A DNA stretch of 64,000 nucleotides from NCBI GenBank assembly GCA_900554815.1, contig USIO01000002.1, positions 192 through 64,191 of the forward strand, read 5' to 3'. The translations under genes were made by a program, and so were the position numbers. Below the pieces are notes generated by a model. That model saw nothing but the letters and a program-made list of their open reading frames with translations. It ran no database searches and was not told the DNA's origin. Positions 1 to 37,265 of the stretch are shown here, piece after piece. Within the stretch, counting starts at the first letter, position 1, and every line of letters starts with the position of its first letter. This stretch comes from an uncultured Clostridium sp. Lineage in GTDB: Bacteria > Bacillota > Clostridia > TANB77 > CAG-508.

Positions 1-240
1 GTATGTATAGTCTTTAAAAAAATATAGCAGTATTCTGTCTCTAAAAGTTAAATGTTTTCTTAATTCTTTCAACATTATATTTCTTTTACTCTTCATCTTT
101 ATGGTTCCTCCTATATAATTATTTTGACTATTTATATTTTACCATATTATGTAAATAAAAATAACTATATTAGAAGTTAGATATTAAATCCTCTTTTCGT
201 TGCTACATCCGTTATTTCAAATTTCGACACATTTCGACTT

Positions 241-556: not shown

Positions 557-775
557 ATGATTCAAGTAAATGTAAAAGAATTACTAAAAAAGCAGAAAAA
601 AACGAAGTATTGGTTTGTCAAACAAATGGAAGGAGGTTATCAGTCACTTACTCGTATGATGGAAAACCAGACAACAGGTATTCGTTTTGATACACTAGAG
701 AAAATGTGTGATATTTTTAATTGTGAAATTGGAGATATTATTGTTAGAAAGAAAGGTAAGAAAAAAAATGAGTAA
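557..775 (+). CDS. XRE/Cro-C1-type HTH transcriptional regulator (YozG-like)
   Basis: RBS GGAGG upstream of ATG at 557. Motifs KTKYWFVKQMEGGYQSLTRM and FDTLEKMCDIFNCEIGDII are typical of small XRE-family regulators. Overlaps the next gene by 8 nt (coupled). Confidence 0.7.
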   Translation: MIQVNVKELLKKQKKTKYWFVKQMEGGYQSLTRMMENQTTGIRFDTLEKMCDIFNCEIGDIIVRKKGKKKNE

Positions 776-1148
776 ACTTTTAAAGCAATATCAAGAACTA
801 AAGAAAAAAGATTCTAATAAAATTTATATTTTTCAAGTAGGAATTTTTTATAATTTATTAAATGAAGATGCCCAATTAGTTTCTAACAAAATTGGATTGA
901 AGCTTACCAATTTAGGTCCAGAAATAGTAAAATGTGGTTTTCCTATCGCCAAATTAGAAAAATATACACATTTATTCGAAAGTCTCGACTTAAAATACGA
1001 ATTAGTTACTAATCAAGCACCTTTAAATCAAGGCTCCTACAGTAGTATTATAAAAAATATACAAAATATAGATTTAGAGAATACTACTTGTAAAGAAGCA
1101 TTTGATATATTATATAATATACAACAAAAATTGAAAAATATACAATAG
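768..1148 (+). CDS. Stand-alone MutS domain I (mismatch-recognition domain)-like protein, 126 aa
   Basis: LLKQYQELKKKDSNKIYIFQVGIFYNLLNEDAQLVSNKIGLKLTNLG...CGFPIAKLEKY aligns with MutS N-terminus MMQQYL..K...P..LLFFRMGDFYELF.DDA..AS.LL.I.LT.RG. The Phe of the GxFxE motif is retained but the Glu is replaced by Asn. Confidence 0.55.
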   Translation: MSKLLKQYQELKKKDSNKIYIFQVGIFYNLLNEDAQLVSNKIGLKLTNLGPEIVKCGFPIAKLEKYTHLFESLDLKYELVTNQAPLNQGSYSSIIKNIQNIDLENTTCKEAFDILYNIQQKLKNIQ

Positions 1149-3355: not shown

Positions 3356-3685
3356 CTACTCCTCCTCCAAGTCAATATCTGACATCATTGCTAGATATTC
3401 AATATCAGATTGCATTTTCAATTTTTCTAGTTCTGCTTCAGATATATCTCTTAAAACGAAATAGTATCCATCTTTATAGTGTGCAATTTGTACTAATTCC
3501 ATATGATTATGTTCTTCAGTAATCTCTTGTCCATCTTCAGTAGTTCCTTCTATTTTGACTTTTATTAATTTTCCTTTGAAGTCCTCCTCTGTGATTTCAG
3601 TTTCTGATACAAAATTATTTCCATTTAAACCTAAGTTTTCAAGTTTTGTTCCATCAGCCAATGTAATTTTCCATGATTTTTCCAT
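3356..3685 (-). CDS. Hypothetical phage protein; XkdW-like call rests only on position and size
   Basis: 109 aa acidic protein immediately upstream of xkdX. Overlaps the RT 3' end by 55 nt. Confidence 0.3.
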   Translation of the reverse strand: MEKSWKITLADGTKLENLGLNGNNFVSETEITEEDFKGKLIKVKIEGTTEDGQEITEEHNHMELVQIAHYKDGYYFVLRDISEAELEKLKMQSDIEYLAMMSDIDLEEE

Positions 3686-4749
3686 GTTACCCTCCTTTTA
3701 AATAAATCATAATATAATTGTGACATATTACTTATTTGTAATCTTGACATATTTTTATAGTTTCCTGCCATCCAACTTTTAAATGTATTTTCTATCTCAT
3801 CATAAGTTAATCTTTTCTTTTCTAATAATCTTTTATATGCTTTCAATTTTCTGCGTTCTCGTGTTATTGCTTTAGGATGTATCTTCTTTATCAACCTACC
3901 TGTTTCAGTTAACTGATATTGTATTTGTAATATTCTAAAAGGTTGAGATAATTTGCACAAGTGTGTTTTTTTAGGATTAATTATTAAGCCTAATTTATCA
4001 GCTATTTCTTTTATTTCTCTCAATAACTTTTTTAAGAAGTCTTTATCTTCATGAATTATATAAAGATCATCCGTATATCTTCCATAATGTTTAACACCTT
4101 TTACGATTTTAATATAATTATCAATTTTTACAGGATAAGAAATTCCTATATTTTGTGAAGGTTGACTTCCTATATCAACACCTCTGTTATTTTTATTATC
4201 TATATTAAATATTTCAAATAAATTACTTAATATCCATAATGTTATTTTTGCTTCGTCTTTATCTGCTTTCTTTAATAAATTATATGTATTTTGTAAACAT
4301 AATTTGTGAGGAATACTAGCATAATAACTGCTAAAATCAATCAATAATATATATCCTTCATTATTTTTATGCTTTCTATAATATCTATGTAAGTGTGTTT
4401 CTAATCTTTTTCTGTGGAAGGATACTCCTTTGCCCTTTTGACTAGCTCCATTATCATAAATTAAATATGGAGAAATAGCTTTACTTAAAACATTATCACA
4501 AAGTAGATGATTTATAGTTTTATCCACCATATTGTCTGTTGTTATATGTCTTATTTTTCCTCTTTCTTTAATTATAAATTTTCTTCCTTTAGAAGGCCTA
4601 TACTTTCCTTCAATTAACTTTTTCTGTAATTCAGCAGTTTCTAATAATTGGTTCATTTCAAATAAGTGTGATTGATATTTGAAAGGAGCTCCTTTAATTG
4701 CTTTTTTTCCTGCCTCATATATTGCATTTGCATCATAAAAAACATTCAT
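3631..4749 (-). CDS. DGR reverse transcriptase
   Basis: RT motifs present: YILLIDFSSYYASIPH (motif A), IGSQPSQNIGISYP (DGR-typical I-G-x-x-x-S-Q motif B), RYTDDLYIIHED (YxDD motif C). 372 aa, typical DGR RT size. Lies adjacent to a TR/VR pair. Confidence 0.9.
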   Translation of the reverse strand: MNVFYDANAIYEAGKKAIKGAPFKYQSHLFEMNQLLETAELQKKLIEGKYRPSKGRKFIIKERGKIRHITTDNMVDKTINHLLCDNVLSKAISPYLIYDNGASQKGKGVSFHRKRLETHLHRYYRKHKNNEGYILLIDFSSYYASIPHKLCLQNTYNLLKKADKDEAKITLWILSNLFEIFNIDNKNNRGVDIGSQPSQNIGISYPVKIDNYIKIVKGVKHYGRYTDDLYIIHEDKDFLKKLLREIKEIADKLGLIINPKKTHLCKLSQPFRILQIQYQLTETGRLIKKIHPKAITRERRKLKAYKRLLEKKRLTYDEIENTFKSWMAGNYKNMSRLQISNMSQLYYDLFKRRVTWKNHGKLHWLMEQNLKT

Positions 4750-4894
4750 AAATCACTTTAATAGTATTACTGGTCGTAACCAAATACATAATGATTAGTA
4801 TTTATCAACATTTACTTGTTGAAGGGATAATCTTTCCTTTCCTTTTCCCATTGCCCTGCTATGAAAGCTTAGTTCATATATATTGCATGGTTGT

Positions 4895-4989
4895 GAAATC
4901 GGGACGAACGCCATTCGAGTTCGAAGCAGAGTTGTTGTTGGCATTGCCATTGCTGTTAACATTAGCGAAGTTCGAAGAAGAAGCGACAT
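4895..4989 (-). repeat. DGR template repeat (TR)
   Basis: About 91 bp homologous to 5662-5756. All 15 mismatches are at TR adenines on the coding (minus) strand. TR frame carries AAC/AAT codons (..NFANVNSNGNANNNSASNSNG..). Confidence 0.85.
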
Positions 4990-5008
4990 ATAAAGATTAC
5001 CCACTAAA

Positions 5009-5521
5009 TTATTTTTTTATGTTTTTTAGAAACCTATTGTCAGACTGTCTGAGTGCTTTTATCATATTAAATTCTTGTTGAATTAATAAAACTAAATTTG
5101 TATACTTATTAAGATCTGCATATAAACATTCTCCTACATACTGTAGTTCATCTTGAAGTGCGTTGCAGCACGACATTGCTCTATCCATTTCTATTCTTCT
5201 TTCTTCAAATTCAGAAATGTATGTTGGAAATATTGTATTTGCAATTCTTAAGTGTCTACTTATTCCTGTCGCTAGTTCTATTACACTATTTGTAGAACGG
5301 TTTAATTGTTGTTCAAAATATTGATAAGTTCTTTTTTTTATTTTTTGCTGTTCTTCTTCTGGAAATCTTTTAATTTTCTCTGCAATAATATTTTCTACCT
5401 TTGAACTATTTATATAGAAATCATTTTCAGCTAGCTTAGTTACCGCCATTCTAATTTTATATGCATTATGTATAGTCTGTAATTTTGATTCTTTCCTTTC
5501 ACTCTTTTTTATATCTGACAT
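5009..5521 (-). CDS. avd: Putative DGR accessory variability determinant (Avd-like), basic helical protein
   Basis: Sits between target gene and TR, which is the canonical avd position. 170 aa, K/R/E-rich and predicted helical. No direct motif proof. Confidence 0.45.
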   Translation of the reverse strand: MSDIKKSERKESKLQTIHNAYKIRMAVTKLAENDFYINSSKVENIIAEKIKRFPEEEQQKIKKRTYQYFEQQLNRSTNSVIELATGISRHLRIANTIFPTYISEFEERRIEMDRAMSCCNALQDELQYVGECLYADLNKYTNLVLLIQQEFNMIKALRQSDNRFLKNIKK

Positions 5522-5619
5522 TTAAAATAATACTATTTCTCCTTTTCTGCAATTTTCGACAAAATTATATCATTTTAAATTTATTAATTTAACTATTTTG
5601 AAGAACCACTATATTATAT

Positions 5620-5640
5620 GTCAGGGCATAAAGCCCTGAC
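5620..5640 (-). other. GC-rich hairpin immediately 3' of VR/IMH (candidate DGR homing-enhancing stem-loop)
   Basis: gtcagggc-ataaa-gccctgac, 8-bp perfect GC-rich stem. Sits 10 nt past the target stop codon and is not followed by a T-run on the transcript strand. Confidence 0.5.
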
Positions 5641-5649
5641 GATGTCTGA

Positions 5650-6510
5650 TTAGTAGATTAGGAAAGCGGGACGAACGCCACCCGAGCCCGAAGCAGAGCC
5701 GCTGTAGGCAAGGCCATAGCCGTTAACAAAAGCGAAGTACGAAGAAGAAGCGACATCCCTTAACCAATAATAATGTCTTGTTCCTGAATCATTAAAAGCT
5801 GTTATTAAATCTTTTCTATGTTGAAATAATGATAACTGAGACTTATCTATTGTAATATTGCCGGTTGGCAAGCTAGTTCCATTTATTACATTATGAAATA
5901 CATTAGTTCCATACACCATTATTTCATTCATTAGTTCTATTGTGCTATCAACCCATGAGCCTGCACTTTCATATCCGCTAGTTGTAGCATTAGCTAAATA
6001 ATTTCTATGTGATAGGATATGAGCAATTTCAAAATCATTTTGTATAATAGTTTTAAATGGAGCCAAATTTTCTGTGTACATTTTGCTTCCTACATAAGCA
6101 CCGGTTGTAACATTGGTTTCATTCATTTGAGCACTACCCATTGTTTTTTCTGGTATCATTAAAACATGATGAGTTGTACACTCTGTATCTCCACAGTGAA
6201 GTCTATAATCTAAGTCTGCTACTATATATTTTCTATTACTATTTTTCCCTATGATATAATCTCCTACAAATATATCATCAAATGTTCCTGCAGCTATTTG
6301 TTCGCTTAATGTTCCATCATAGAATAAGTCTGTTATATCTTGCCCTCTATAAATAGAATTATGAGCACCTGCATTTTGTGGTATTAACCCACTTAATAAT
6401 TTGGATAATAGCACTTTTTTAGTTTTTCCATTTGTAGTATCTACAATTGGAATTACATCATTATTATTTATTGTTAGTAATTCTTCTAATTCTGATATTT
6501 TTTTAATCAT
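5650..6510 (-). CDS. DGR variable target protein: tail-fibre/receptor-binding-like, C-terminal C-type-lectin-like variable domain (DUF1566/FGE-like ending ..HYYWLRD..VRPAF)
   Basis: 286 aa. VR covers the last 32 codons (DVASSSYFAFVNGYGLAYSGSASGSGGVRPAFLIY). First ORF after the tail genes. RBS AAGGAGGG. Confidence 0.8.
   Translation of the reverse strand: MIKKISELEELLTINNNDVIPIVDTTNGKTKKVLLSKLLSGLIPQNAGAHNSIYRGQDITDLFYDGTLSEQIAAGTFDDIFVGDYIIGKNSNRKYIVADLDYRLHCGDTECTTHHVLMIPEKTMGSAQMNETNVTTGAYVGSKMYTENLAPFKTIIQNDFEIAHILSHRNYLANATTSGYESAGSWVDSTIELMNEIMVYGTNVFHNVINGTSLPTGNITIDKSQLSLFQHRKDLITAFNDSGTRHYYWLRDVASSSYFAFVNGYGLAYSGSASGSGGVRPAFLIY
5662..5756 (-). repeat. DGR variable repeat (VR) with IMH-like GC element (ggcgttcgtcccg) at its 3' end
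   Basis: Differs from TR only at positions where TR has A on the coding strand (A to C/G/T). Invariant GC-rich 3' segment shared with TR, then divergent flanks (IMH versus IMH*). Confidence 0.85.
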
Positions 6511-9406: not shown

Positions 9407-12400
9407 CTATTTTACTGTTACTAGGTTTAATAAGTTTTTTGTTTGTCTATATAATTCTAATCTTGAAGGTTGTTTTGGAGCATTTATTACTTGAGTAAAA
9501 TTATTTACATTCGATGTTGTATTAGATACATTATTTATATTTGATGCATTGGTTTTTACTATTTGGTCTTTCATTTCATTGGCCACAGCTTTTATCCAAT
9601 GTTTATTTCTTTCAAGTGGTACTACAGCCTCAGCACCAGAACCTTCTAATAATCCAACTTCTCCTTTTCTTAATACTCCACCCTTTGCAAGTCTTGGAAG
9701 ATTAACTCTATTAAAGTTACCTATATTTACTCCGGGTATATTATTAATTAAATTTATTGCACCATTTATCATATCAATACCTTTATTAATTACATTTTCA
9801 ATCATTGATATAATACCATTAATTCCTGACTTTACTGCTCCTCCAATGGCATCTCCTATTGTTGTTCCTAAACTTGAAAATTTATTACTAATTGTATTCC
9901 AAAGTCCTCCAAAGAAGTCTCCTACTTTTCCGAATATACTTGTAATATTATTCCAAGCCTCTTGGAATTTGTCTTTAAACCAGTTTCCTACATTTGAAAA
10001 TGCACCACTGATACTACTCCATGCATTAGATGCCCATTCTTTGGCTGTTGACCATGCTTTTTTAGAATTTTCATTTGCTTGTGTAAATTTTTCTTTAAAC
10101 CAATTCCCTGCATTTGAAAAAGCACTTGTAATATTATTCCAAGTATTAGATGCCCATTCTTTAGTATTTGCCCACGCATTTTGTATATTTTCTTTTGCAT
10201 TAGAGAACTTCTCTCCAAACCAACTACCAACATTTGAAAATACATTTTTTATTCCTTCCCATGCTCCACTAAAGAATTCTCCTAATTGGGCAGGTAATTG
10301 TGCAAGTCCTTGGAATATTGCTGTAATAATTTGTGGTATTGCTTTTATTAATTCAATACAAATTTGAGGTATTGCAGTAACAAGTCCCATAAATAATTGT
10401 ACTGCTCCTGCAATTAATGTTGGTAGATTTTGAAGTAGGGTTGTTACTATTGTGGTAATTATTTTTGGAATTTCTGGAATTAATGCTTGTATAATTTGTG
10501 GAATTGCTTGTACTATTCCCATAAGTAATTGTACAGCACCATTTATAATAGCATCTAATCCATTAATTAGTCCATTTACTATTGCTTGTATTATTGTTGG
10601 TAATGCATCAATAAGAGCAGCTATAATCTCTGGAATTGCATCTATAATACCCATTAATAATTGTATTGCTCCATCAATTATAAGAGGTATTCCAGTAATT
10701 AAGCCATTAACAATACTATTTATAATCTGTGGTAGAGCATTTAAAATAGCCTTAATAACTGTTGGTATTGCATCTATAATTGCCATAAAAAAATCAATCG
10801 CTCCTTGAATTAATTGTGGTATTCCATCAACGAGAGATTGAACTATTTGTGGTATTATATTAACTATTTGTACTAAAATTTCTGGTATCATTTGGCCTAG
10901 ACCTGTTAGCAAACTTTGTATTATTTGAGCTCCTACTGATACTAACTTTGGTAACATACTTAACAATGATTGTGTTATCTGCGGTATTAAATTCATTATG
11001 GTTTGAATTACTTGTGGCAATGCATTTATAATTCCTTGTATCAAAGATGTTATTATTTGTACGCCTATGTTTAAGATTGTTGGTAATGCCTCAGTTAGTT
11101 TTGATAGTAGCATATCTAAAGTTACAGATATTCCACTTGTCAATAATTCTGCTGCTCCAGTAGTTCCTTCCATTAGACCTCTAACGCCATCTCCAATTTG
11201 TTCAAGGCCAGGTAACATTGTATTTACCAAATCAGCAATTCCTTGCTTAAATGCAGTTATTATTGGCATTGCCACTCTACCCATTTCTGACATTGCTGTA
11301 CTCATATTAGCTGTTGCTTCTCTCGATGCTATTAAATCTCCATTAACATCTTTGTAGGCATCTGTAGCACTTTGATATGTTTTGCTCAATGTTTCTGTAA
11401 TTAATGTTGCTCTTTCTTGTTCACTATTACATTGAGCTAATTGCTGATTGAATTTATCTTCAGATATACCTGCCCAATTTAAAGCATCAGCTAGAGGACC
11501 TGTAACTTGTCCCACTTTTGCAGTTTCGTTAGCCGCTTCTGTTAATCCTTCCAGAGGTAAGCTATCGCCAAATGTTGCATACACACCTGTTGCTATGTCA
11601 GTCCACTTTGAAAGTTCTTCTTCGCTCTTTGTTAACTTAGCCAAGTGGTTTACTGCTTCAACAGATTGGTCTGTTTCTCCTAATATTCCAACCATTCCTT
11701 GAAAAGATTTTTGTGCAGCTTCTGTAGAGTGTCCTGCACTTGTAAAAGCAGCTTCGAGTTTTCCCATATCCTCCATAGTATCTTGTGTTGCTGCTCCAGT
11801 AGCCAAAAAACCCGCAACAGCTCCTGCTGCCGCGGTTGCTATACCCATTAAACCTTTTTTAAGTCCTCCACCTAATTTGCTTGCTAAACTATCACTATTT
11901 TTTTCTGCTTTTTGTGCAGCATCTCCTACTTCTTTTAATCCCTTAGCTGCTTTGCTACTTGATTTGTTCGTATCATTTGAATTACTTTCTACTTCGTCAA
12001 GAGCACTACTATATTGTCTTATTTCTTTTTCTGTCTTATTTACTGCAGCTTGTTGATTTAAAATAGTTACTTTTAATTTATCTGCCATATTTGCATTTGC
12101 AGTTTGCTCTTTTTCTACATCTGTTAAGGCTTTTTCATATTTTTTATATTCATCGGATGTCTTTGAAATTCCTTGACTAGATAATTGTTGAAGTTTTGCT
12201 TTTAATTCATCTGCTTTTTTCCCATTTTCTTGCTCTGCTTTTTCAACTGCTTGCAATTGAGATTTATAATTATCAAGTTTCTTATTTTCTTCAATTAATA
12301 CTGAGTTTAATTGTTTTAATTTTGCATTTAATCCATCACTTGATTTTGTCCAGTCATCCATACCTGCACTAGCTGCTTTAAATTCTGCATTTGCGAGTTT

Positions 12401-12487
12401 TATATTTTTGTTTGCTTCAGTTATACCTTTTTTTAATTCAGATATATCGACTTTAAATTTTGTTGTTATATCTTCTCCTTTTGGCAT
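9407..12487 (-). CDS. Tail tape measure protein
   Basis: 1026 aa. N-terminal coiled coil. Long hydrophobic repeat block (IIPQIVQSL.., roughly 33-aa repeats) and 3-4 copies of NAWANTKEWASN..FSNAGNWFKEKF. Lies between chaperone and Dit. Confidence 0.85.
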   Translation of the reverse strand: MPKGEDITTKFKVDISELKKGITEANKNIKLANAEFKAASAGMDDWTKSSDGLNAKLKQLNSVLIEENKKLDNYKSQLQAVEKAEQENGKKADELKAKLQQLSSQGISKTSDEYKKYEKALTDVEKEQTANANMADKLKVTILNQQAAVNKTEKEIRQYSSALDEVESNSNDTNKSSSKAAKGLKEVGDAAQKAEKNSDSLASKLGGGLKKGLMGIATAAAGAVAGFLATGAATQDTMEDMGKLEAAFTSAGHSTEAAQKSFQGMVGILGETDQSVEAVNHLAKLTKSEEELSKWTDIATGVYATFGDSLPLEGLTEAANETAKVGQVTGPLADALNWAGISEDKFNQQLAQCNSEQERATLITETLSKTYQSATDAYKDVNGDLIASREATANMSTAMSEMGRVAMPIITAFKQGIADLVNTMLPGLEQIGDGVRGLMEGTTGAAELLTSGISVTLDMLLSKLTEALPTILNIGVQIITSLIQGIINALPQVIQTIMNLIPQITQSLLSMLPKLVSVGAQIIQSLLTGLGQMIPEILVQIVNIIPQIVQSLVDGIPQLIQGAIDFFMAIIDAIPTVIKAILNALPQIINSIVNGLITGIPLIIDGAIQLLMGIIDAIPEIIAALIDALPTIIQAIVNGLINGLDAIINGAVQLLMGIVQAIPQIIQALIPEIPKIITTIVTTLLQNLPTLIAGAVQLFMGLVTAIPQICIELIKAIPQIITAIFQGLAQLPAQLGEFFSGAWEGIKNVFSNVGSWFGEKFSNAKENIQNAWANTKEWASNTWNNITSAFSNAGNWFKEKFTQANENSKKAWSTAKEWASNAWSSISGAFSNVGNWFKDKFQEAWNNITSIFGKVGDFFGGLWNTISNKFSSLGTTIGDAIGGAVKSGINGIISMIENVINKGIDMINGAINLINNIPGVNIGNFNRVNLPRLAKGGVLRKGEVGLLEGSGAEAVVPLERNKHWIKAVANEMKDQIVKTNASNINNVSNTTSNVNNFTQVINAPKQPSRLELYRQTKNLLNLVTVK

Positions 12488-15794: not shown

Positions 15795-17168
15795 CTAAGC
15801 TGTTACGCTTTTCTTTAATAAATAAATATATTTTGGATCTAATATTTTTCCATCATTGATTACTAGTGCTTTCTTTATGTATTGATTCTTTTCATGATCA
15901 AAATAATCAACAACAGTAAATTCCATATTACTATTAATTGCATAAGCTTCTTCTGGAACCCAATACATTCCAAAGTAATCTCCATCTGCTGCATCATTAA
16001 AGTTTTTCAATACATCTTCCTCTACAAATGCAACATTCTTTCCTTTGAATTTTGAAATTTCAGAACCATCAACAGGATTAAATGTTTCATTATATACTGG
16101 TCTATTGTTATCATCTGTTAATGTTTTTATATTTGCTTCATAAGTATTTGCAGTCATAGCAAATTCAGGATTTAAACCTCTCATTGCTAATGGGATTTTA
16201 GCAAATAATTTTTCTTGCCATGCTTTCCAGTCTGCCATTTCAGCAGCAGTAAATGTGATTATATTTGCTGCAGGTATTCTTGAACCACTTGATTTTTTTG
16301 CTTCTGTTAATATACCAACACATTCATTATTAGCATCTTGTCCATTCATAATTTCTTTATCCATTGCTTGAACATAAGCTTTTACAATTACTTTGGCAAA
16401 TTCTTCTTCAAATACTGGAACACTTAATATTGTTTGTAATAATGTTCTTGCCATTCTAATTTCACCAATTTTATATGAGAACTCTACTGAGCCTGTAACT
16501 CCACCAGCATTTTGTCTGTCGCTTACAGTAGTTTCTGTAATACGCTTGAATGTTGCACTAAAACTTCCAATTGGATATTTTACACCACCTTGTAAGTTGG
16601 TCTTTAATACCCTTGAATAAAGTTGTCCATATACTTTTTCTACATCTGTAATTATTTTTTGAATTACAGTAGTTGGAATTAATACTCCTAATTCACTAGA
16701 TGTTCCTGTTGCATCAGTTCTTGACTCAAATAATAAAACATCTCTGTTGATTTCTCCTCTTTGGATGTAATTCATGAATGCTTTTCTATATTCCATAGTT
16801 GCTCTAGGATCATTGCTATCTATATCAAATTCTTGTCCTCTGTTATTCATTCTAGCTTGCCCTAAAACATTTAGAGTTGCATTTGGATTAAATCCATTTG
16901 CACTTCTTCCTTCATTTGCATTTGCATCATCATTATTATCATCTGTATTATTATCTTTGTCAGCATCTTTGTTGTCATCTTTGTTGTTATCATCTTCTTC
17001 TAATTTAGCTAATTGTTCTTCAGCATCATTAATCTCATCTCGCAATGCGATTAATGTTTCTCCTAGACTTCTAACTTCCTCAATGTCTTGAGAATTTTTC
17101 ATTTTTTCTTCCTTTGCTTTTAATTCATTTTTCTTTCTAGCAATTAATTTTTTTAAATAATCTTTCAT
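15795..17168 (-). CDS. Major capsid protein, HK97 family (with N-terminal coiled-coil delta region)
   Basis: 457 aa. Coiled-coil and acidic N-terminal 110 aa, then an HK97-like core. Gene order protease-capsid. Confidence 0.85.
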   Translation of the reverse strand: MKDYLKKLIARKKNELKAKEEKMKNSQDIEEVRSLGETLIALRDEINDAEEQLAKLEEDDNNKDDNKDADKDNNTDDNNDDANANEGRSANGFNPNATLNVLGQARMNNRGQEFDIDSNDPRATMEYRKAFMNYIQRGEINRDVLLFESRTDATGTSSELGVLIPTTVIQKIITDVEKVYGQLYSRVLKTNLQGGVKYPIGSFSATFKRITETTVSDRQNAGGVTGSVEFSYKIGEIRMARTLLQTILSVPVFEEEFAKVIVKAYVQAMDKEIMNGQDANNECVGILTEAKKSSGSRIPAANIITFTAAEMADWKAWQEKLFAKIPLAMRGLNPEFAMTANTYEANIKTLTDDNNRPVYNETFNPVDGSEISKFKGKNVAFVEEDVLKNFNDAADGDYFGMYWVPEEAYAINSNMEFTVVDYFDHEKNQYIKKALVINDGKILDPKYIYLLKKSVTA

Positions 17169-17169
17169 T

Positions 17170-17799
17170 TTACATTCCTCCTAATAAATATTTTAATTTT
17201 AATTTTTCTAACTCTAAAGAAGTGTCCACCTCTTTACTTCTAGCAGTCTCCACCGCTAGGCGTGCAGTGTCCACCGCACTTTTATCTCTAGCAGATATTG
17301 AAGTAGCCTCGTAAGCTGGAAATGTTACTGCACTAACTTCAACAACTGTTGAAATTGATTTTATATGTCTTGTTGGATAATCACTATCAAGGTTTTCCCA
17401 TTCTTCGTCATCGATTCCAAACATAAAAGACATACCTGTTATGTCTCCTCTCTCTATTGCACTATATAAATTTCTTGCCTCTGTATTATTTTCTACATCT
17501 AGTTCGACATTAATTTCCATTCCTTCGTCATCAACAGATAATTGCATAGTAGAATTCTTGGAATTTCTTCTTGACCTTGCAAGTGGTATTTTAGATTGAT
17601 CATGATTTACTAAAAATCTTACATCTTCTAAATTTGTTTTCTTTAATGCTCCTTTTTCTATAATCTCTGCAAACATTCCACCTATATCTGTTTTACTTCC
17701 ATAAACAATTGGCCTTCCTACAATTATGTTTCCTCTTCTTTCATCTTTTTCTGCTCTAATTTGAAAATCGTAATTTCTTCTAATTAATTCATTCTTCAT
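17170..17799 (-). CDS. Prohead protease, HK97 family (S78/U35)
   Basis: Start assigned to the ATG at 17799 with RBS GGAGG, since the ORF-track start at 17880 overlaps the portal. Position between portal and capsid. The acidic tail EVDTSLELEKLKLKY resembles a scaffold-like C-terminus. Confidence 0.75.
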   Translation of the reverse strand: MKNELIRRNYDFQIRAEKDERRGNIIVGRPIVYGSKTDIGGMFAEIIEKGALKKTNLEDVRFLVNHDQSKIPLARSRRNSKNSTMQLSVDDEGMEINVELDVENNTEARNLYSAIERGDITGMSFMFGIDDEEWENLDSDYPTRHIKSISTVVEVSAVTFPAYEATSISARDKSAVDTARLAVETARSKEVDTSLELEKLKLKYLLGGM

Positions 17800-19021
17800 T
17801 TTCACTACCTCCAATACTCGAGTTATTCTCATTTTCAACTTTATTGTTTTCTGCATTTGCTTTATTACTTGACATTGCAATTTGTCCTGCTAGCTCTGGA
17901 AGTGGTCTCATTCCAAATGCTGTACGAAGTTCGTTTTTATAACAGCTTGCACTATCAACCAATAAATCAAATAATTCTATCTTTTGGCTTGTATCCATAA
18001 AAATTAATTCATGTGGGTACATCATAATTTTGTTTCCAAATCCTTTTTCTCTAACACTAAACATAGACATTGTAAAAGATTCGCCTGTTCTTTTTAAAAT
18101 TGGCTCTAAGCTTTTTTGATAAAAAGCTTCGTATTGTGCTTTTGTATAATCTCCAGTTAATATTGGAAGAGAGACTCCAAAATTTCTCAATATTTTTTCA
18201 TCAATAAATTTTAAAGTAGTAGCATCTACTAATTGAATTTTGTTTTGTAATGGTATATATTCCCCTTTAATATCTAGTGGTAAAAATCCGCTTTCATTAT
18301 TAGAAAGTCTTTTCTCCATATTCTTTATGTTTTCTTCCATTTTGCCATCGTCCATTAAAGTATTATATTTAATAACTCCATTTATGGAAAAAGAGCTTTT
18401 CAATGCTTTTGCTACTCCTTGCAATAATGTGTGGTTAAGTTCTAGCGTTTTTAATAATGCTTTGTTATCAGGTTGTCCTTTTTCATTGCCACCCATAAAT
18501 TCATTAACTGAATACCTATACTTTATATGTATTACATCTGAATATGCTAAAATTGTTTCATATCCATTTATGAATTTGAATTGAATTCCTAGTTTTCCCT
18601 CTGGATCTTGCAAAAAAGTAACATCTATTGGTTGTATAGGATATAAGCCAGTATATTTTTTATTTCCTTTATTGTCTCTATAATATGTTGGAACAATAAA
18701 AGCATTATAATTTAAAAATAATTGCCAATATACCTTTTCAAAAAAGTCCGTTTGTGTCATTCTTTCATTTGGTTCTTCTAATAGTCTTTGAATTTCACTA
18801 TTCTCAACTGGTACTAAGTCACTTCCGTCTTTTTTTATATGATATGGATTTGCCTTTGTTAATTCTGTTACTAAGCAAGATATTGCTTGTTGTACAACAT
18901 CACTTGCATATATATCTTGACCAAATTGTGAAAAGATAGGGGTATATCCATTCAACATTTGAGCATATTTAAAATTTTGCTTAATCTTCTTAAATTTGTT
19001 AATAAAATCAATTAGTCCCAA
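17789..19021 (-). CDS. Portal protein, HK97 family
   Basis: 410 aa. Lies between terminase large subunit and protease. Acidic C-terminus. Confidence 0.8.
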   Translation of the reverse strand: MGLIDFINKFKKIKQNFKYAQMLNGYTPIFSQFGQDIYASDVVQQAISCLVTELTKANPYHIKKDGSDLVPVENSEIQRLLEEPNERMTQTDFFEKVYWQLFLNYNAFIVPTYYRDNKGNKKYTGLYPIQPIDVTFLQDPEGKLGIQFKFINGYETILAYSDVIHIKYRYSVNEFMGGNEKGQPDNKALLKTLELNHTLLQGVAKALKSSFSINGVIKYNTLMDDGKMEENIKNMEKRLSNNESGFLPLDIKGEYIPLQNKIQLVDATTLKFIDEKILRNFGVSLPILTGDYTKAQYEAFYQKSLEPILKRTGESFTMSMFSVREKGFGNKIMMYPHELIFMDTSQKIELFDLLVDSASCYKNELRTAFGMRPLPELAGQIAMSSNKANAENNKVENENNSSIGGSENEE

Positions 19022-19175: not shown

Positions 19176-20843
19176 TTACCCATTAACTAACTTGTGGAAT
19201 TCATTTCGATATCTTCTATATATTTCATATAGAATTATCAATGTTACAGCTCCATCAATTCTTTTATTTGCTTGTTTCTTTACTTTGACACACATAATAT
19301 TTCCTAAGTTATCCATTTCTATTGCGGAATTTCCTAGACACCACTTATCAATTTCATTGCTATTGTAATTTATAAGTCTATCCTTCAAGTCTGCTTCCAC
19401 ATATTTCATTGCATTACTTAAAACCTTACCTTGCAATATCATTTCTACTTCTAAATTGTAATCATTCATTCTGTCTGTAAAAGCTTTTGAAAATCTTTGG
19501 TCATATCCTGCTATATATGACTTAATATTGTAATCTTTATATAATTGATAAAACCAATCTGCTATTTTAGTAATATCTATTTCATTACCATCATGGATTG
19601 TTAATAAACCTTTTCTTGCCCATTCTTCATAATTAGCTCCTGCAGCTTTATCGTCACTATCTTCTAGTTTACTTTCTGGTATCCAATAATGTGAAAATAC
19701 ATATTTTGTTTTATCGTTTGGTTTCATTAATAATATTTTTGCATTTGATAAGTCTGTTGTTGCTGAGAGGTCAACTGCACCCAAACAAAAAGAACCTCTA
19801 AAGTCCTCTAGACTAAATGGTTCTTGTTCATAACTATAATCTTCATACATCAACCATGCTTGAGCATTGTTTTGTTTAATATTAAAGTCCTTGCAAAGTG
19901 TGTGCATTCTTTTTGATTTTGAAGTTTTTGATTTTTCTATTTCACTTCGTAATGATTTCCATTTTTTTACCACTCCTAATCCCGGATTTGATTTATACCA
20001 ACTTTGTTCATCTTGCCATATTTCTTCTTCACTGTCTTGTGTATAAAGCCATGGTAAATAATGAATATCATCGGTTTCGTCAAATAAAACTTCTCTTGCA
20101 TATTTTAGTTCATTGTCTAGATATCCATCATTAATAAATCCTTCTGTTGTTAGATTTATAAATAATGGTTCATCTTTTGTCGACATTGATTTCTGACCTG
20201 CTTCAGCAATTTCATCATTTGGTGCATCGTGGCTTTCATCCATATACATTTTGTCTATGTTTCTACCATCTTTATTTTGAGTTTTACCTGACATTTTAAA
20301 TATTGTTATATTTTTTTGTGTATTACAGATTTCAGACATATTTTTGTGAGTAACTTTTGAGTGTGGATCTATTCTTTTTCTCATATTGTCTATTTCATTC
20401 CAAAGTAAGCTAGCTTGCTTATCATCGTTAGATGCACAGACTATATCCATTCCACCTTCGCCAATTCTCAAATCTGCATGAGCATCTGCTGCCATAAGTG
20501 TTGTTTTTCCATTCTTTCTTGCTATCAATAAAAGTATATTTTGAAATCTTCTTACCCATCTTTTTAATTCTGGATCATATACTTTAAAAGAATATATTAC
20601 TTCAATAAAAGCCTTTTCCCAGAGTAATAATTGCATTGGCATATTATAAAAAGGTCTTTTGCTTTGCAAACATAAATGTTCCATAAAATCAATTCTTAAA
20701 TGTGCCTCTTCTGTGTCATATTTATAGTTAGGATTTTTTAAATCTTTAATTAGTTTTTGTAATTCTGTTTTTAATTCTAAGCCTACTATTATATTTCCAC
20801 TTTTAATTTCTTCATAATATTGTTCTAAGAAGTATTTACTCAT
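19176..20843 (-). CDS. terL: Terminase large subunit
   Basis: Walker A LLIARKNGKTTLMA. C-terminal nuclease-like region. 555 aa. Confidence 0.9.
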   Translation of the reverse strand: MSKYFLEQYYEEIKSGNIIVGLELKTELQKLIKDLKNPNYKYDTEEAHLRIDFMEHLCLQSKRPFYNMPMQLLLWEKAFIEVIYSFKVYDPELKRWVRRFQNILLLIARKNGKTTLMAADAHADLRIGEGGMDIVCASNDDKQASLLWNEIDNMRKRIDPHSKVTHKNMSEICNTQKNITIFKMSGKTQNKDGRNIDKMYMDESHDAPNDEIAEAGQKSMSTKDEPLFINLTTEGFINDGYLDNELKYAREVLFDETDDIHYLPWLYTQDSEEEIWQDEQSWYKSNPGLGVVKKWKSLRSEIEKSKTSKSKRMHTLCKDFNIKQNNAQAWLMYEDYSYEQEPFSLEDFRGSFCLGAVDLSATTDLSNAKILLMKPNDKTKYVFSHYWIPESKLEDSDDKAAGANYEEWARKGLLTIHDGNEIDITKIADWFYQLYKDYNIKSYIAGYDQRFSKAFTDRMNDYNLEVEMILQGKVLSNAMKYVEADLKDRLINYNSNEIDKWCLGNSAIEMDNLGNIMCVKVKKQANKRIDGAVTLIILYEIYRRYRNEFHKLVNG

Positions 20844-24261: not shown

Positions 24262-24335
24262 CTTTGGTTGCGGACATAGGATTCGAACCTCGTCTATGGG
24301 ATATGACCCCATCGTGCTGCCTTTGCACCATCTCC
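24262..24335 (-). ncRNA. Degenerate tRNA-fMet-like element (CAU anticodon loop), possible phage-borne tRNA or pseudo-tRNA
   Basis: GGTTCGAATCC T-loop and acceptor ..CCGCAACCA. D-stem GTGC/GCAC and anticodon stem ATGGG/CCCAT with loop GTCATAT. T-stem only 3 bp and one acceptor mismatch. Confidence 0.4.
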
Positions 24336-24487
24336 GCAATATAAAAAGCTACCTAAAGGGGAAGGTAGCTCTACAAAATTGGAAAAAGATATATGAAATT
24401 TCATATTTGCAATTTTTTGCAATTATAATTGTAACATATTATTTTTTTTAATAATACGGACAAAATATATAAATTTTATGTACAAAA

Positions 24488-28726: not shown

Positions 28727-29137
28727 CTAATATTCTGATATTTTGACTATAACCTTTGGTGTTTTTGCATATTTTTTAAATATTCTTACATCTGTTATTT
28801 GTGCATCATCTTTAAAAGCAAACTTATTTAACGCATCACTTATTATTTTTCCTATATTATCCCAATCTGGTTTCTTTGTTGGACTTATTCCTCCTGATAG
28901 CATTTCCGCTTCTTTCTTCTTGCTTGTACTCTTTGGTATATCAAAGTATGCTATTATTGTCATAGTTACTCTTCCTTCAATTGGCTTGTAATTTGGATAT
29001 TTATATAAAAATATTTGACGCACTAAATATTCATAGTTCTTTGTTTTGGTTGGAGTATAGGCTCGTCCTGTATATGTATTCATTCGTGGTCTTGCCTTTC
29101 CTGTTATTTGTTCATTTATCTCAATTTCATAATTCAT
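28727..29137 (-). CDS. rusA: RusA-family Holliday junction resolvase
   Basis: TGKARPR near the N-terminus and KPDWDNIGKIISDALNKFAFKDDAQI (RusA D..DN..K..DAL...DD motif). Confidence 0.75.
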   Translation of the reverse strand: MNYEIEINEQITGKARPRMNTYTGRAYTPTKTKNYEYLVRQIFLYKYPNYKPIEGRVTMTIIAYFDIPKSTSKKKEAEMLSGGISPTKKPDWDNIGKIISDALNKFAFKDDAQITDVRIFKKYAKTPKVIVKISEY

Positions 29138-30662: not shown

Positions 30663-31456
30663 GCAGACAAACTATAAAATAATTTATAATTTCTTCTAGT
30701 CTGTAGTATGGTTTTTCTGTTATGTACTTCTTGGTCTTGTAATATTTCAATGTGAATTTTTCCCTTGTAAGCTTATTTAAATAAACTCTATGCGGACTAA
30801 GATATATTTCTTTCAATGCCCAGAACATTATTTTTTCATCTAAAACTCTTTCCTGTGGCATCAGATTATATATTTCAATATTTCCGGCAATACATTTCTA
30901 ACCTTTTTAGTAGAACTATTAAGCATTCTCTGTCATTTTCGTTCAGTCCAATTTCTTCTCCGCTATCTCCTTTATAAATATAATTAAATAATAAGTTTAG
31001 TTTAGTTATAATGTGTTCGTCTGCCTGTTCTTCCGCTTGTGCGTTCGGCTGTGCGTTCGGTTGTTCTTCCGCTTGTTCAAATTGCTCATTATACAATTTC
31101 GTTATTGTATATGAAGAAGCATCATTTTGATTTATTCCGCTTCTTGTATAAAATATACTGATTATTAATCAATTCATTTCTTGCTCTTTGTAGAGCTGAT
31201 ATATTTAAACCTTTCACTTTGCTCATTAGAATAGTATTTGTTACTTTAAACTCTCGAAGCCAGTCTGTCTTGCAAGCTATCTGCAGTAATACTAAATATA
31301 TTGAGATAGCATTTGCAGAGATAGGCTTGAAGTCTAATGTAGAATAAAATTCAGAGAGCTGTTTTTCAAGGTCTATTTGGCATTTTCTGTTCACACATTC
31401 CCCACTCCTTTCTTAATGTTGTCCTATTCGACAAAATCTCTTGTTGCACAAATAAC

Positions 31457-31843
31457 TTATTCATTTTGTGCTTCTGGAGTGTTATGCACTCTATTCATGA
31501 CTTCTTCTTTTAATAAAAATAGCAAAGCTGTATTATTAATAGGATAATCAACATCAAATTGTTGTTTTAAGTCTAATTCTAAATGTACATAACGCATTGC
31601 TCTTTCAACCTTTGAAAATGTTGTTTTATGTTTTCTTGCAATTCTTGAATATAACTTCATCATTACTATATTTCCATTTTCTGAGTTTTCTTCATCTTCT
31701 ATTACAAGTAACAATGCTGTTACCCAATACTTAAAACCTAGAATATGTGTTTTTATTCCTATTTCTTTTAATACCTGCTTTGCTATTTTCTTTATTTTTT
31801 CTGATTCTTCTAGTTTTATATTTTCTTGCATATCTTTTTCCAT
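31457..31843 (-). CDS. Stand-alone Spo0A C-terminal (DNA-binding) domain-like protein, no receiver domain
   Basis: HILGFKYWVTALLLVIED and MMKLYSRIARKHKTTFSKVERAMRYV align with Spo0A-C HIKGYQYLREAITMVVND and [25 protein letters not shown]. Confidence 0.55.
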   Translation of the reverse strand: MEKDMQENIKLEESEKIKKIAKQVLKEIGIKTHILGFKYWVTALLLVIEDEENSENGNIVMMKLYSRIARKHKTTFSKVERAMRYVHLELDLKQQFDVDYPINNTALLFLLKEEVMNRVHNTPEAQNE

Positions 31844-33644: not shown

Positions 33645-33896
33645 TTATGAATTTAATTCATATTTTTTAGTAAAAAAATATTTGGTTGATTCTTCAATAG
33701 GTATTCCTAATAAATTACAAATTTCTATTATTTCCATTTGATTAAATGGAGATTTGCAATTTATTTTGTTTGAAAAACTTCCTGTACTCATTTCAACGCC
33801 TCTCTTTTGTAGCTCTCTTACAAAGTTAGCTTCACTTCCAAAATATGTTCTTATTCTTCCTCTTAATAGTGAATAGTCTAATAATTTTAACATCAT
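33645..33896 (-). CDS. Cro-like early regulator (DUF739-like), divergent from the cI-like gene
   Basis: 83 aa, HTH-like. Divergent promoter region shared with the repressor gene contains a palindromic operator. Confidence 0.4.
   Translation of the reverse strand: MMLKLLDYSLLRGRIRTYFGSEANFVRELQKRGVEMSTGSFSNKINCKSPFNQMEIIEICNLLGIPIEESTKYFFTKKYELNS
33647..33661. promoter_or_regulatory. Operator palindrome ATGAATTTAATTCAT (copy 1)
   Basis: Perfect 7-1-7 palindrome inside a 24-bp repeat ttttatgaatttaattcatatttt. About 70 bp upstream of the 33576 gene start. Confidence 0.4.
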
Positions 33897-33934: not shown

Positions 33935-34076
33935 ATTTTCCATTATAATATATTAGACTTTAAAAAATGTCAATACTTTTTATGAATTTTTTTCATTTTT
34001 TTGTATTTTCTTTCAAAACTATTGATTTTATTTCATTTTTTTGATATGATGTTATATATATTTAAGGAGGATTGCC

Positions 34077-34637
34077 ATGAGTAACGAAAGAACTGATAGT
34101 TTTGCTAATAGATTAGCAATTGCTATGCAATTAAATAATATAAATCAAATTGAATTATCAGAAAAGACAAAAACCTTTTCTAAAACTATATCTCAATCTC
34201 TTATAAATAAATATTTAAAAGGTAAAGCTTTAGCTAGACAAGATAATATATATATATTATGTAAGATTTTAAATGTTGATGAAGCTTGGATGATGGGGTT
34301 TGATGTTCCAATGGAAAGAACTCCTGATGAATTAAGAACTAACAATGATATATTTCAATATACTGCTACTGATTCTGCAATGTTACCTTTACTTGATGTA
34401 GGAGATATTGCCTTTATTCAAAAATGTAATAAATACGAAAATGGTCAAACAATTTTATTTAGATTAAATAATGAAGAATATATTAGAAAAGTAACTGATA
34501 ATAATGATAGCGTTGAATTTCAAGCTATGAATGTTTATTATCCTGTCATGAAATTTACAAAAGAAGAATTAAAAAAGAACAATTTTCAAATTATAGGTAG
34601 AGTAATAAAAGTTGAAAATAAAAGTGCTTTTAAATAA
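34077..34637 (+). CDS. CI-like phage repressor: N-terminal XRE HTH plus C-terminal LexA-like S24 autopeptidase
   Basis: RBS AAGGAGG. HTH NINQIELSEKTKTFSKTISQ. S24 motifs TDSAM (Ser) and IGRVIKVENK (Lys). Confidence 0.8.
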   Translation: MSNERTDSFANRLAIAMQLNNINQIELSEKTKTFSKTISQSLINKYLKGKALARQDNIYILCKILNVDEAWMMGFDVPMERTPDELRTNNDIFQYTATDSAMLPLLDVGDIAFIQKCNKYENGQTILFRLNNEEYIRKVTDNNDSVEFQAMNVYYPVMKFTKEELKKNNFQIIGRVIKVENKSAFK

Positions 34638-35407: not shown

Positions 35408-36796
35408 ATGAATACTACAGGTACTCGTAGAGCTAATGGCGAAGGATCTATCTACGATACTATACAAAAGATACCTAGAAGAAAAAAATTGGATCGTGAA
35501 TGCGATATTTGTAAAAACTGTACTGATAGAAATATATGTAATAATCGTACTGGCTCAGCCAAATGTCAGAAGTGCGTTGAGTGTACTGACTGCTTAAAAT
35601 ATTGTGACCGCTTCTATTGTTATTTTAGATATCAAGCTCAGATTTCCATAGATAAAAAACAGACTACTGTTGCTAATGAAGAAAAGAAAAAAGCTGCAGT
35701 TGATAAAAAATTAAATGTAGAAGCAAAAGTCCATACTAAGAGCTATGTAAAAAAACATGGTATCACTATTATTGAAGTATGTAAAAAAATAGGAAATACA
35801 AAATTTGAAGCAGGAAAAATCGTAAAAAATACAAAGGATAAAGATAAATATCATTACAAATATATTGAGAACTGGCCAGATTTTCAAAAGCCAGTACAAA
35901 AAGTAACTTATAATGAAGTCCAAGATTTTCTTAATTCCATAAGGCATCTCTCACAAGGAGAAATAGAAAAAATAGTTGCTAAACTAAAAGCAGGCTTTAT
36001 GCAATGTGTATTAGATAAAATAATAGCCTATCCAGATAATCCTATGTTAAGGATATATATTCCTGTTTCCTTACAGAAAAAAGAACCTGTGCAGGCTTTT
36101 GAAATTGAGGAGCAAAGAAAATTAATAAAATATTTACTAACTAAGCCTTTGGTAAAAAGTTCTAGATGTAATTATGATGAAGAAACTCTAAGGAATTTAT
36201 TTATATGTGCATTATTATCTGCTGCAAGAATTGGAGAATTAGGATCCATTGATATTGATAAAAATATAGATTTAAAGGCTAGCGGATTCACAATAAATCG
36301 AACATTATCTAGTGATGGTGGAAAAATCATTATGGGCAAAACTACTAAAACTGGTCGTAAAAAAGTAGAGCAAGGCTTGTTAGATGAAAGGTTTGTACCA
36401 TTTGATATTTTTGATGAAAACTTCATGCTAGACATTGTCAAAAATCAAATAAAAAATGCACGAAGTAATCCAAATAATAAGGAAAATCTTTTGTTTTGTC
36501 AGTTAGATGGTAGTTATATAGACCATCGTTCCATAAATAATATATTTAAAAGGATTTGTAGAGAAGCAGGTGTAAAATTAGAACTTCCTAAGGGATGTCA
36601 TACTCACATGTGTAGGCATACTGCTGTTACTAGGATGATTGAAGCCGGAATGGATCTTCTGGTTATTGCAGCTATCCTTGGCCATGTTGATGACCGCCAA
36701 ATAAGAGAGACTTATGGTCATATTCTCGCACGATATATAAACAAGCAGTTAAAGGATTGTAGAGTTTATTCTAAAAAGATAAAACTTTGTGCTTAG
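35408..36796 (+). CDS. int: Tyrosine integrase (phage integrase family) with an unusual Cys-rich N-terminal extension
   Basis: Catalytic region CRHTAVTRMIEAG...LGHVDDRQIRETYGHI (HxxR...Y). N-terminus has 10 or more Cys (CDICKNC..C..C..CQKCVEC..C..C). Confidence 0.85.
   Translation: MNTTGTRRANGEGSIYDTIQKIPRRKKLDRECDICKNCTDRNICNNRTGSAKCQKCVECTDCLKYCDRFYCYFRYQAQISIDKKQTTVANEEKKKAAVDKKLNVEAKVHTKSYVKKHGITIIEVCKKIGNTKFEAGKIVKNTKDKDKYHYKYIENWPDFQKPVQKVTYNEVQDFLNSIRHLSQGEIEKIVAKLKAGFMQCVLDKIIAYPDNPMLRIYIPVSLQKKEPVQAFEIEEQRKLIKYLLTKPLVKSSRCNYDEETLRNLFICALLSAARIGELGSIDIDKNIDLKASGFTINRTLSSDGGKIIMGKTTKTGRKKVEQGLLDERFVPFDIFDENFMLDIVKNQIKNARSNPNNKENLLFCQLDGSYIDHRSINNIFKRICREAGVKLELPKGCHTHMCRHTAVTRMIEAGMDLLVIAAILGHVDDRQIRETYGHILARYINKQLKDCRVYSKKIKLCA

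Positions 36797-37191: not shown

Positions 37192-37265
<74 letters not shown>

Follow-up and report, generated by a model that had tools for sequence, protein, structure and literature searches.

The stretch analyzed here, 64,000 nucleotides (nt) of contig USIO01000002.1 from an uncultured Clostridium sp. (hereafter the window), contains an apparently complete siphovirus-type prophage of ~36 kb (~1150-36850). Within it lies a gene for a stand-alone homolog of the effector domain (Spo0A_C) of the sporulation regulator Spo0A, followed directly by a conserved element that ends in a perfect 0A box. The features of this locus are as follows.

31457..31843, minus strand: Spo0A_C-type open reading frame (ORF), ATG start, 128 amino acids (aa), stop codon at 31457-31459
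31427..31456, minus strand: conserved element of ~30 nt, GTTATTTGTGCAACAAGAGATTTTGTCGAA, starting directly after the Spo0A_C stop codon
31427-31445, minus strand: 19-nt core of the element, AACAAGAGATTTTGTCGAA
31427-31433, minus strand: perfect 0A box TGTCGAA at the end of the element, 23 nt past the stop codon
31122..31394, minus strand: downstream gene, 90 aa, resembling the N-terminus of a replication initiator (PHROG 19658)
33645..33896, minus strand: 83-aa gene in the Cro position, first of the early genes
33973..33945, minus strand: best sigma-70-type promoter of the region, early lytic operon, TTGACA-17-TATTAT, 11/12 matches
34077-34637, plus strand: CI-like repressor (HTH_3 + Peptidase_S24), divergent from the early operon
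35408-36796, plus strand: tyrosine integrase at the right prophage end, near tRNA-Gly (37192-37265)

The promoter points away from the repressor gene and is followed by the 83-aa gene, several small ORFs and the Spo0A_C gene, with no minus-strand terminator-like site found from the promoter (33945..33973) to the Spo0A_C gene. In related loci, the Cro position is occupied by syntenic genes of 71-83 aa that match DUF739 (PF05339). The Spo0A_C gene, whose start codon is preceded by a strong, G-rich ribosome-binding site (AAAGGGGGAAAGGGACA-ATG), is located ~2 kb into this early lytic operon and directly upstream of the replication-initiator-like gene. The latter begins with GTG 32 nt past the 0A box, with the ribosome-binding site GGAG in between, and its 90-aa product matched PHROG 19658 'replication initiation protein' with E=4e-4, while the 253-aa version in a related locus (L001) did so with E=3.6e-7. 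Judged from this arrangement, the Spo0A_C gene is an early lytic gene and not a moron or lysogenic-conversion gene. As a member of the CI-controlled early operon it should therefore be silent in the lysogen, and this position weakens the picture of a prophage that steers host sporulation during lysogeny.

All fetched loci, with protein identities of 47-98%, share one fixed gene order: integrase, CI(S24), Cro-like gene, small early ORFs and Spo0A_C gene, then a spacer of ~60 nt (31395-31456 in the window), the replication-initiator-like gene and RusA. What is encoded past the spacer differs between loci: one protein of 90 aa, a longer version of 253 aa, or two proteins of 45 and 246 aa. Of these, the 90-aa, 253-aa and 45-aa forms match PHROG 'replication initiation protein' families. 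The 90-aa product corresponds to the N-terminus of the 253-aa protein of some relatives, and the copy in the window may be split or shortened. Across loci, the 90-aa gene was 69-93% identical, whereas the Spo0A_C gene in the same loci was 47-74% identical.

Fold and DNA-reading residues of the protein

The first-pass annotation of this DNA, made from the letters alone, had proposed that the ORF encodes a stand-alone Spo0A effector domain carried by a prophage. This proposal was borne out by the profile and structure searches as well as by the prophage genes around it. Both peptides on which it had been based (HILGFKYWVTALLLVIED and MMKLYSRIARKHKTTFSKVERAMRYV) were found in the translation of ORF 31457..31843. 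Against the Pfam Spo0A_C profile (PF08769), the 128-aa protein scored 49.9 bits (E=3.4e-13) with respect to a gathering cut-off of 25 bits, residues 23-86 being aligned to profile positions 3-63 of 104. In a phmmer search of the PDB sequences, the Spo0A C-domains 1fc3 and 1lq1 were the only matches (E ~1e-6), and an hhalign comparison between a 62-member family alignment and the Bacillus subtilis Spo0A C-domain gave 97% probability over 63 columns in helices A-D.

Since the hidden Markov model (HMM) and hhalign alignments are confined to helices A-D and end past the recognition helix, the remainder of the fold is covered by the structure evidence. The AlphaFold2 model of the 128-aa protein, built on 62 relatives, comprised six helices (residues 2-28, 35-53, 61-71, 76-85, 92-96 and 104-121), with a mean predicted local distance difference test score (pLDDT) of 86 and a predicted template modeling score (pTM) of 0.80. 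A Foldseek search of the PDB with this model returned seven Spo0A effector-domain chains (1fc3, 1lq1) as the sole meaningful matches (TM 0.61-0.76, 104-116 aligned columns, probability 1.00), the next match having E>1. The six-helix fold with its helix-turn-helix (HTH) in helices C-D is thus common to the Spo0A effector domain (1FC3, 1LQ1, PF08769) and the phage protein.

That the protein is a generic HTH protein or a decaying gene fragment devoid of Spo0A-related function is very improbable and may be regarded as already refuted. Such a view could draw on the restriction of the HMM and hhalign alignments to helices A-D. However, the Pfam score is twice the cut-off, both phmmer and Foldseek matched Spo0A structures only, the family of 63 members holds invariant residues in helices D, E and F, and the exact 128-aa sequence is present on many metagenomic contigs. 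At the same time, the protein is a member of the Spo0A_C family and not a Spo0A orthologue: its score against the Spo0A equivalog profile TIGR02875 was 52.9 bits, below the cut-off of 200, and its identity to Spo0A is 23-26%. Unlike Spo0A, the phage-encoded protein has neither receiver domain nor linker; no receiver domain was found within its 128 aa, and residues 1-22 merely lengthen helix A. As the first-pass annotation had argued, a protein of this architecture therefore cannot be subject to phosphorelay control.

For the residue comparison, 26 relatives were aligned with the B. subtilis Spo0A C-domain, the numbering of which reproduces the known mutant positions H162, F236, V240 and A257. 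Residues T75, E80, R81 and R84, which correspond to Spo0A T208, E213, R214 and R217, were invariant in the 27 family members and B. subtilis Spo0A, as were Y39, A43, Y65, F96 (F236) and N104. The recognition helix reads FSKVERAMRYV and keeps the motif T..VERA.R; shared with the Spo0A effector domain are the motif TT.S(K/R)VERA(I/M)R, F236 and the helix-F motif N..(F/L)(I/L). Glu213, Arg214 and Arg217 are presumably the base-contacting residues of 1LQ1. With respect to Spo0A, six residues (EVAWSR) are deleted after the recognition helix and five in the E-F loop, and helix E is shortened to five residues in the model. At the positions G227, S233, F236 and V240 (B. subtilis numbering), which form the sigma-A-activating region, the phage protein shows G227->L, S233->K and V240->Y, and F236 alone is kept. 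From alignment and model, the DNA-reading head looks intact and the sigma-A-activating surface does not. Because the helix E region is mostly unconserved and the helix itself shortened, activation of host promoters appears doubtful.

A large protein database held 63 relatives, 61 of which are 115-186 aa in length and 47-98% identical. All 61 full-length relatives stand alone and carry PF08769, and they are unnamed or labeled 'hypothetical protein' in their sources. Among species-representative genomes, relatives occur in only five metagenome-assembled genomes (MAGs) of uncultured Clostridia (rabbit, roe deer and similar sources), and IMG/VR provided 11 loci with a relative of the 128-aa protein. 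A megablast search of 11 kb against INPHARED revealed no relatives among cultured phages. An exhaustive profile search gave 3,544 clusters at E<1e-3, of which the best 150 were mostly stand-alone proteins of 90-135 aa; stand-alone Spo0A_C proteins are hence a large family, to which the group of the 128-aa protein belongs as one subfamily. In other proteins, among them P0065 (439 aa) and P0079 (849 aa), three to five Spo0A_C domains follow one another in tandem and each has a recognition helix, an architecture of which we have so far met no description.

The tblastn matches H1-H4 were rejected as members of this family, being full-length spo0A genes with a receiver domain on 'Bacteriophage sp.' scaffolds of 43-57% GC. 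Full-length spo0A was seen on the human faecal virome scaffolds MT835781, MT835715, MT837510 and MT835737 (L033-L036), which probably represent either bacterial sequence that entered the virome assemblies or transduced DNA; such scaffolds could inflate counts of 'phage spo0A'. A related prophage whose Spo0A_C protein is 47% identical (L015) was found to carry, in addition, a 47-aa Spo0E-like gene (PF09388, 4954-5097) in the moron region, which is bordered by the lysis genes and the integrase, and this phage thus possesses two genes of the sporulation-initiation type.

The 0A-box element beside the gene

The element past the Spo0A_C stop codon was conserved in 20/23 non-redundant Spo0A_C-positive loci, with protein identity down to 47%. 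The box itself was a perfect TGTCGAA in 18 of the 23, TGCCGAA in one and TGTTGAA in another (L005); one further locus held a two-mismatch remnant and two held nothing. In phage Nf, TGTtGAA has been footprinted as a Spo0A site (PMC2731898). Conservation was not limited to the 7-bp 0A core: a 12-nt extension on its 5' side, AACAAGAGA, was conserved as well, per-column information being highest over the block from -13 to +7 while the flanks diverge. This extension has no known counterpart. The 19-mer AACAAGAGATTTTGTCGAA was found once in the 64-kb window versus 0 expected. An RNA element in the spacer was considered and rejected, as the RNAalifold consensus reached -0.84 kcal/mol with no covarying pair; because no spacer structure was found, the conservation is taken to act at the DNA level.

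The box was shown to travel with the Spo0A_C gene. It was retained where the downstream gene has been replaced (L018, L020, L025, L002). Conversely, among 22 IMG/VR loci with a homolog of the downstream 90-aa gene, four lineages that lack Spo0A_C also lack the box (18/23 versus 0/4; Fisher test, p=0.007, ignoring phylogeny). Furthermore, in one locus (L048) the recognition helix reads VRKAMSY in place of VERAMRY, all three presumed contacts being changed, and there the box is absent.

Several observations weigh against an operator for the adjacent protein. The covariation between protein and site is imperfect: the box is missing in L014 although E, R and R are retained, it is degenerate in L058 despite an unchanged VERAMRY, and it is perfect in L031, where the helix reads VEKDMRY. 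The loci are related, so that the conservation is not a set of independent events. The box is single: no second 0A box was found 3 bp away on either side in either orientation, and none lies at the 10-bp spacing of Spo0A dimers. A distant stand-alone homolog (L032) has no clear perfect box adjacent to it. For the wider stand-alone family, an IMG/VR scan with a diverse Spo0A_C alignment gave one locus, in which TGACGAA, 50 nt downstream, was the only such sequence, and a metagenome scan gave no match. In addition, an exact IMG/VR scan for AACARGARATTTTGTCGAA returned 25 stretches, of which nine adjoin Spo0A_C genes; the other 16 (~9 lineages, 33-50% GC) have no Spo0A_C gene in the fetched DNA. 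The latter lie mostly in coding sequence, and their number is compatible with chance. The idea that the 19-mer is exclusive to the Spo0A_C module was rejected by this reverse scan.

In one group of viral contigs of 45-50% GC (L062 and the near-identical L068, L069, L072, L075, L079 and L080), the 19-mer (3850-3868 in L062) coincides with the final codons (..EQEILSN*) of a gene for a 254-aa protein, with no Spo0A_C gene nearby. This protein is distantly homologous to the replication-initiator-like gene product, and the 19-mer there may be either a chance occurrence or a replication-linked 0A box.

The sigma-H -10 consensus is RNNGAAT. The GTCGAAT of the element also fits this type of -10, and several loci have GGAAC roughly at the -35 place, so that the block may function as a promoter instead of an operator. 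On this account, the conserved block would be a promoter or a module boundary that incidentally contains TGTCGAA, and the protein would regulate other sites. Short conserved junction sequences are indeed common in mosaic phages, and the 19-mer also occurs elsewhere by chance. We nevertheless consider this account quite improbable. A perfect TGTCGAA would be expected by chance with a probability of ~0.003 (one strand, ~60-nt spacer, our own estimate at this composition), and it is the cognate site of the very protein family encoded by the adjacent gene. Moreover, the box was lost in L048, the lineage with the changed recognition helix, and no sigma-70 promoter was called at the box.

Regulatory readings of the protein and its box

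The best-supported reading, to which we would give not quite an even chance, is that the protein is a phage regulator with a cis-linked 0A-box operator. The Spo0A effector domain would here form the basis of a phage regulator of transcription or replication that is produced from the CI-controlled early lytic operon soon after induction or infection. Its primary site would most likely be the conserved 0A-box element just past its own gene and before the replication-initiator-like gene, since a conserved box co-inherited with the gene suggests, in the first place, a target within the phage. At this site, the protein would most plausibly act by repressing or timing either expression of the replication module or initiation at a nearby origin. 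Because the DNA-reading residues match those of Spo0A, cross-talk would be expected in both directions, with phosphorylated host Spo0A (Spo0A~P) occupying the phage box and the phage protein occupying host 0A boxes.

This mechanism is in line with what has been reported for Spo0A. An isolated Spo0A DNA-binding domain needs no phosphorylation to bind genuine 0A boxes and contacts the bases G2, C4 and G5 of TGTCGAA (PMC3485338), and Spo0A bound to 0A boxes represses the early promoters of phi29 and blocks initiation of its replication (PMC2731898). By analogy, the proposed action would mirror that of host Spo0A at phi29 early promoters and origins. A further-reaching form is that, in one lineage of temperate Clostridia phages, the Spo0A output domain and its cognate 0A-box operator have been domesticated as a portable two-part module gating phage replication genes. 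Phage replication would in turn be tied to host sporulation both ways, with host Spo0A~P shutting the phage replication gene and the phage protein occupying host 0A boxes, including oriC-type sites. This form we hold only tentatively, as possible but open to considerable doubt.

The first-pass annotation, like Schwartz et al. (2023; PMC10294663), had seen the protein as a means of redirecting host sporulation. According to this explanation, its main task would be to bind host 0A boxes independently of phosphorylation. The Spo0A regulon would thereby be activated or, with higher probability, competitively blocked, and the infected cell would sporulate or not to the advantage of the phage. The DNA-reading residues conserved with Spo0A are consistent with such an action, as are the sufficiency of an isolated DNA-binding domain for binding (PMC3485338), the enrichment of PF08769 on mobile elements of gut Firmicutes (PMC6907783) and that of truncated spo0A genes in phages of spore-formers (PMC10294663), together with the Spo0E-like gene in the related prophage described above. 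It is also compatible with a box in cis, since the protein would see all 0A boxes in the cell. On the other hand, the gene is located in the early lytic operon and not in a lysogeny or moron position, and it occupies a fixed syntenic slot beside the replication genes, as core phage regulators typically do. The largely unconserved, shortened sigma-A-activating region makes activation unlikely, and the co-inheritance of a perfect box with the gene is left unexplained. As the primary function, this explanation is therefore rated unlikely; an action of the protein on host sporulation is possible. For the 'toxin programmes' that the first-pass annotation had also invoked, we found no basis: the host is an uncultured member of the Clostridia with 28% GC, and no toxin genes were found within the 64-kb window, nor were host spo0A or other sporulation genes.

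Alternatively, the 0A box may serve to sense host Spo0A~P, as in phi29, with the phage domain competing with the host protein or imitating it there. The box would then arrest the phage in sporulating cells, and the phage domain would override or pre-empt the host signal. Phages phi29 and Nf provide the precedent (PMC2731898), 0A boxes have been noted in SPO1 (PMC12991052), and the 19-mer at the 3' end of the replication-initiator-like homolog in the L062 group hints that the box can exist without the phage protein. However, that case may be chance, as it lies within coding sequence. In the closest comparison, the four lineages with the downstream gene and without Spo0A_C are also without the box, and the conserved block reaches 12 nt 5' of the 7-bp core, beyond the known need of host Spo0A. 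This alternative thus seems rather improbable. It and the host-directed explanation are not exclusive rivals of a phage regulator with its own operator; the three differ in which interaction is under selection.

Effector-only Spo0A genes of phages have been described before. Schwartz, Rodriguez-Ramos, Shaffer, Flynn, Daly, Wrighton and Lennon (mBio, 2023; PMC10294663) reported truncated, effector-only spo0A genes in human-gut phages. These share with the present gene their architecture, their type of carrier (phages of gut Firmicutes) and the argument for freedom from the phosphorelay, and the idea of a phosphorelay-free phage Spo0A is accordingly already published in general form. The enrichment of PF08769 on mobile elements of gut Firmicutes had been noted in 2019 (PMC6907783). 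The present gene falls into this class: an effector-only domain is located on a Firmicutes prophage with integrase, CI, terminase, portal, head, tape measure and endolysin genes, and its carriers are Clostridia MAGs. The former survey comprised 29 virome sequences and an alignment only, with no genomic position, 0A boxes or binding sites (PMC10294663). As far as we found, neither the position in the early operon nor a co-inherited 0A box has been described before. A literature search revealed no experimental work on truncated spo0A of phages, and nothing usable on the contact list of 1LQ1.

Phages phi29 and Nf likewise have TGTCGAA boxes, including TGTtGAA, in their early and replication regions, but these are bound by the full-length, phosphorylated Spo0A dimer of the host and are paired 3 bp apart (PMC2731898). 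In the present prophage, it would be the phage's own receiver-less domain that acts, at a single box with a 12-nt 5' extension. Here, one conserved box precedes the replication-initiator-like gene (31427-31433), and a second box lies at an extended -10 promoter (5555-5561; see below). Sites for a host developmental regulator also occur in promoter regions of Alphaproteobacteria phages, where CtrA sites serve lytic deferment; this system differs in regulator family and host clade, and binding of host CtrA has been shown experimentally (PMC9437464). Phage-borne sigF/sigG-like factors represent another case of sporulation transcription machinery on phages; as cited in PMC10294663, they are sigma factors and not a response-regulator output domain, and they lower the spore yield in B. 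subtilis.

Phage Spo0A output domains are known from sequence surveys only. The candidate site beside the gene, its early-operon place and the natural variants of protein and site make the question directly testable. If the protein binds the box, the view would shift from an 'auxiliary gene manipulating host sporulation' to a phage regulator that shares the DNA code of the host developmental switch, with a bearing on how gut spore-formers and their phages coordinate dormancy. If it does not, the protein would be one more member of a catalogued class.

Other 0A boxes, prophage genes and host flanks

Two further sites of 0A type and other prophage genes are listed below.

223-239, minus strand: tandem 0A-type boxes 10 bp apart, GTCGAAatgTGTCGAA, host flank left of the prophage
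5555..5561 (region 5555-5572), minus strand: second intergenic perfect 0A box, TTTGTCGAAAA
1179-2024, minus strand: endolysin, left prophage end (PHROG 7698, E=8e-95)
3631-4749, minus strand: reverse transcriptase of a diversity-generating retroelement
9407-12487, minus strand: tape measure protein
15795-17168, minus strand: major head protein
17789-19021, minus strand: portal protein
19176-20843, minus strand: large terminase
28727-29137, minus strand: RusA

The box at 5555-5561 is located 2 nt past an extended -10, TGaTATAAT (5572-5564), and 33 nt before the ATG of ORF 5009..5521, its spacing to the start codon being the same as at the Spo0A_C-linked box. We infer that it may be a further target of the Spo0A_C protein. 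Altogether, perfect 0A boxes numbered six in the prophage and one in the host flank (at 223), versus 2.0 expected for the whole window. Since four of the six prophage boxes fall within coding sequence and lack conservation in related loci, no weight was given to this count. The degenerate motif TGNCGAA occurred at 16 sites in the prophage (1150-36850), of which 13 are on the transcribed strand, and at 4 sites in the host part (36851-64000), its density being ~3x higher in the former. As most sites are coding, this may reflect composition or codon usage. The tandem boxes at 223-239 have the spacing used by Spo0A dimers at abrB-type sites, and the gene they would serve lies outside the window.

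The prophage is flanked on both sides by host genes (tgt, queA, ileS, tsf, rpsB, pyk, pfk). The tRNA-Gly gene at 37192-37265 (minus strand), ~400 nt beyond the integrase, likely marks the attachment-site region; a comparison of the two prophage ends gave no attachment-site repeat of more than 13 nt. Inside the prophage, a tRNA-Met gene (24265-24338, minus strand) overlaps the start of a ParB-like ORF. Abutting the endolysin end, a 146-aa ORF (708-1148, plus strand) contains MutS domain I only; it may stem from a host mutS that has been truncated, or be a fragment carried by the phage.

The tail region of the prophage contains a complete diversity-generating retroelement (3631-6510, minus strand). 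Its template repeat is located at 4895-4989, and the variable repeat (5662-5756) is part of the 3' end of a tail-region gene with DUF6273 (5650-6510). All mismatches between the repeats (16/16) fall at template adenines on the coding strand, and ORF 5009-5521 occupies the position of the accessory gene (Avd).

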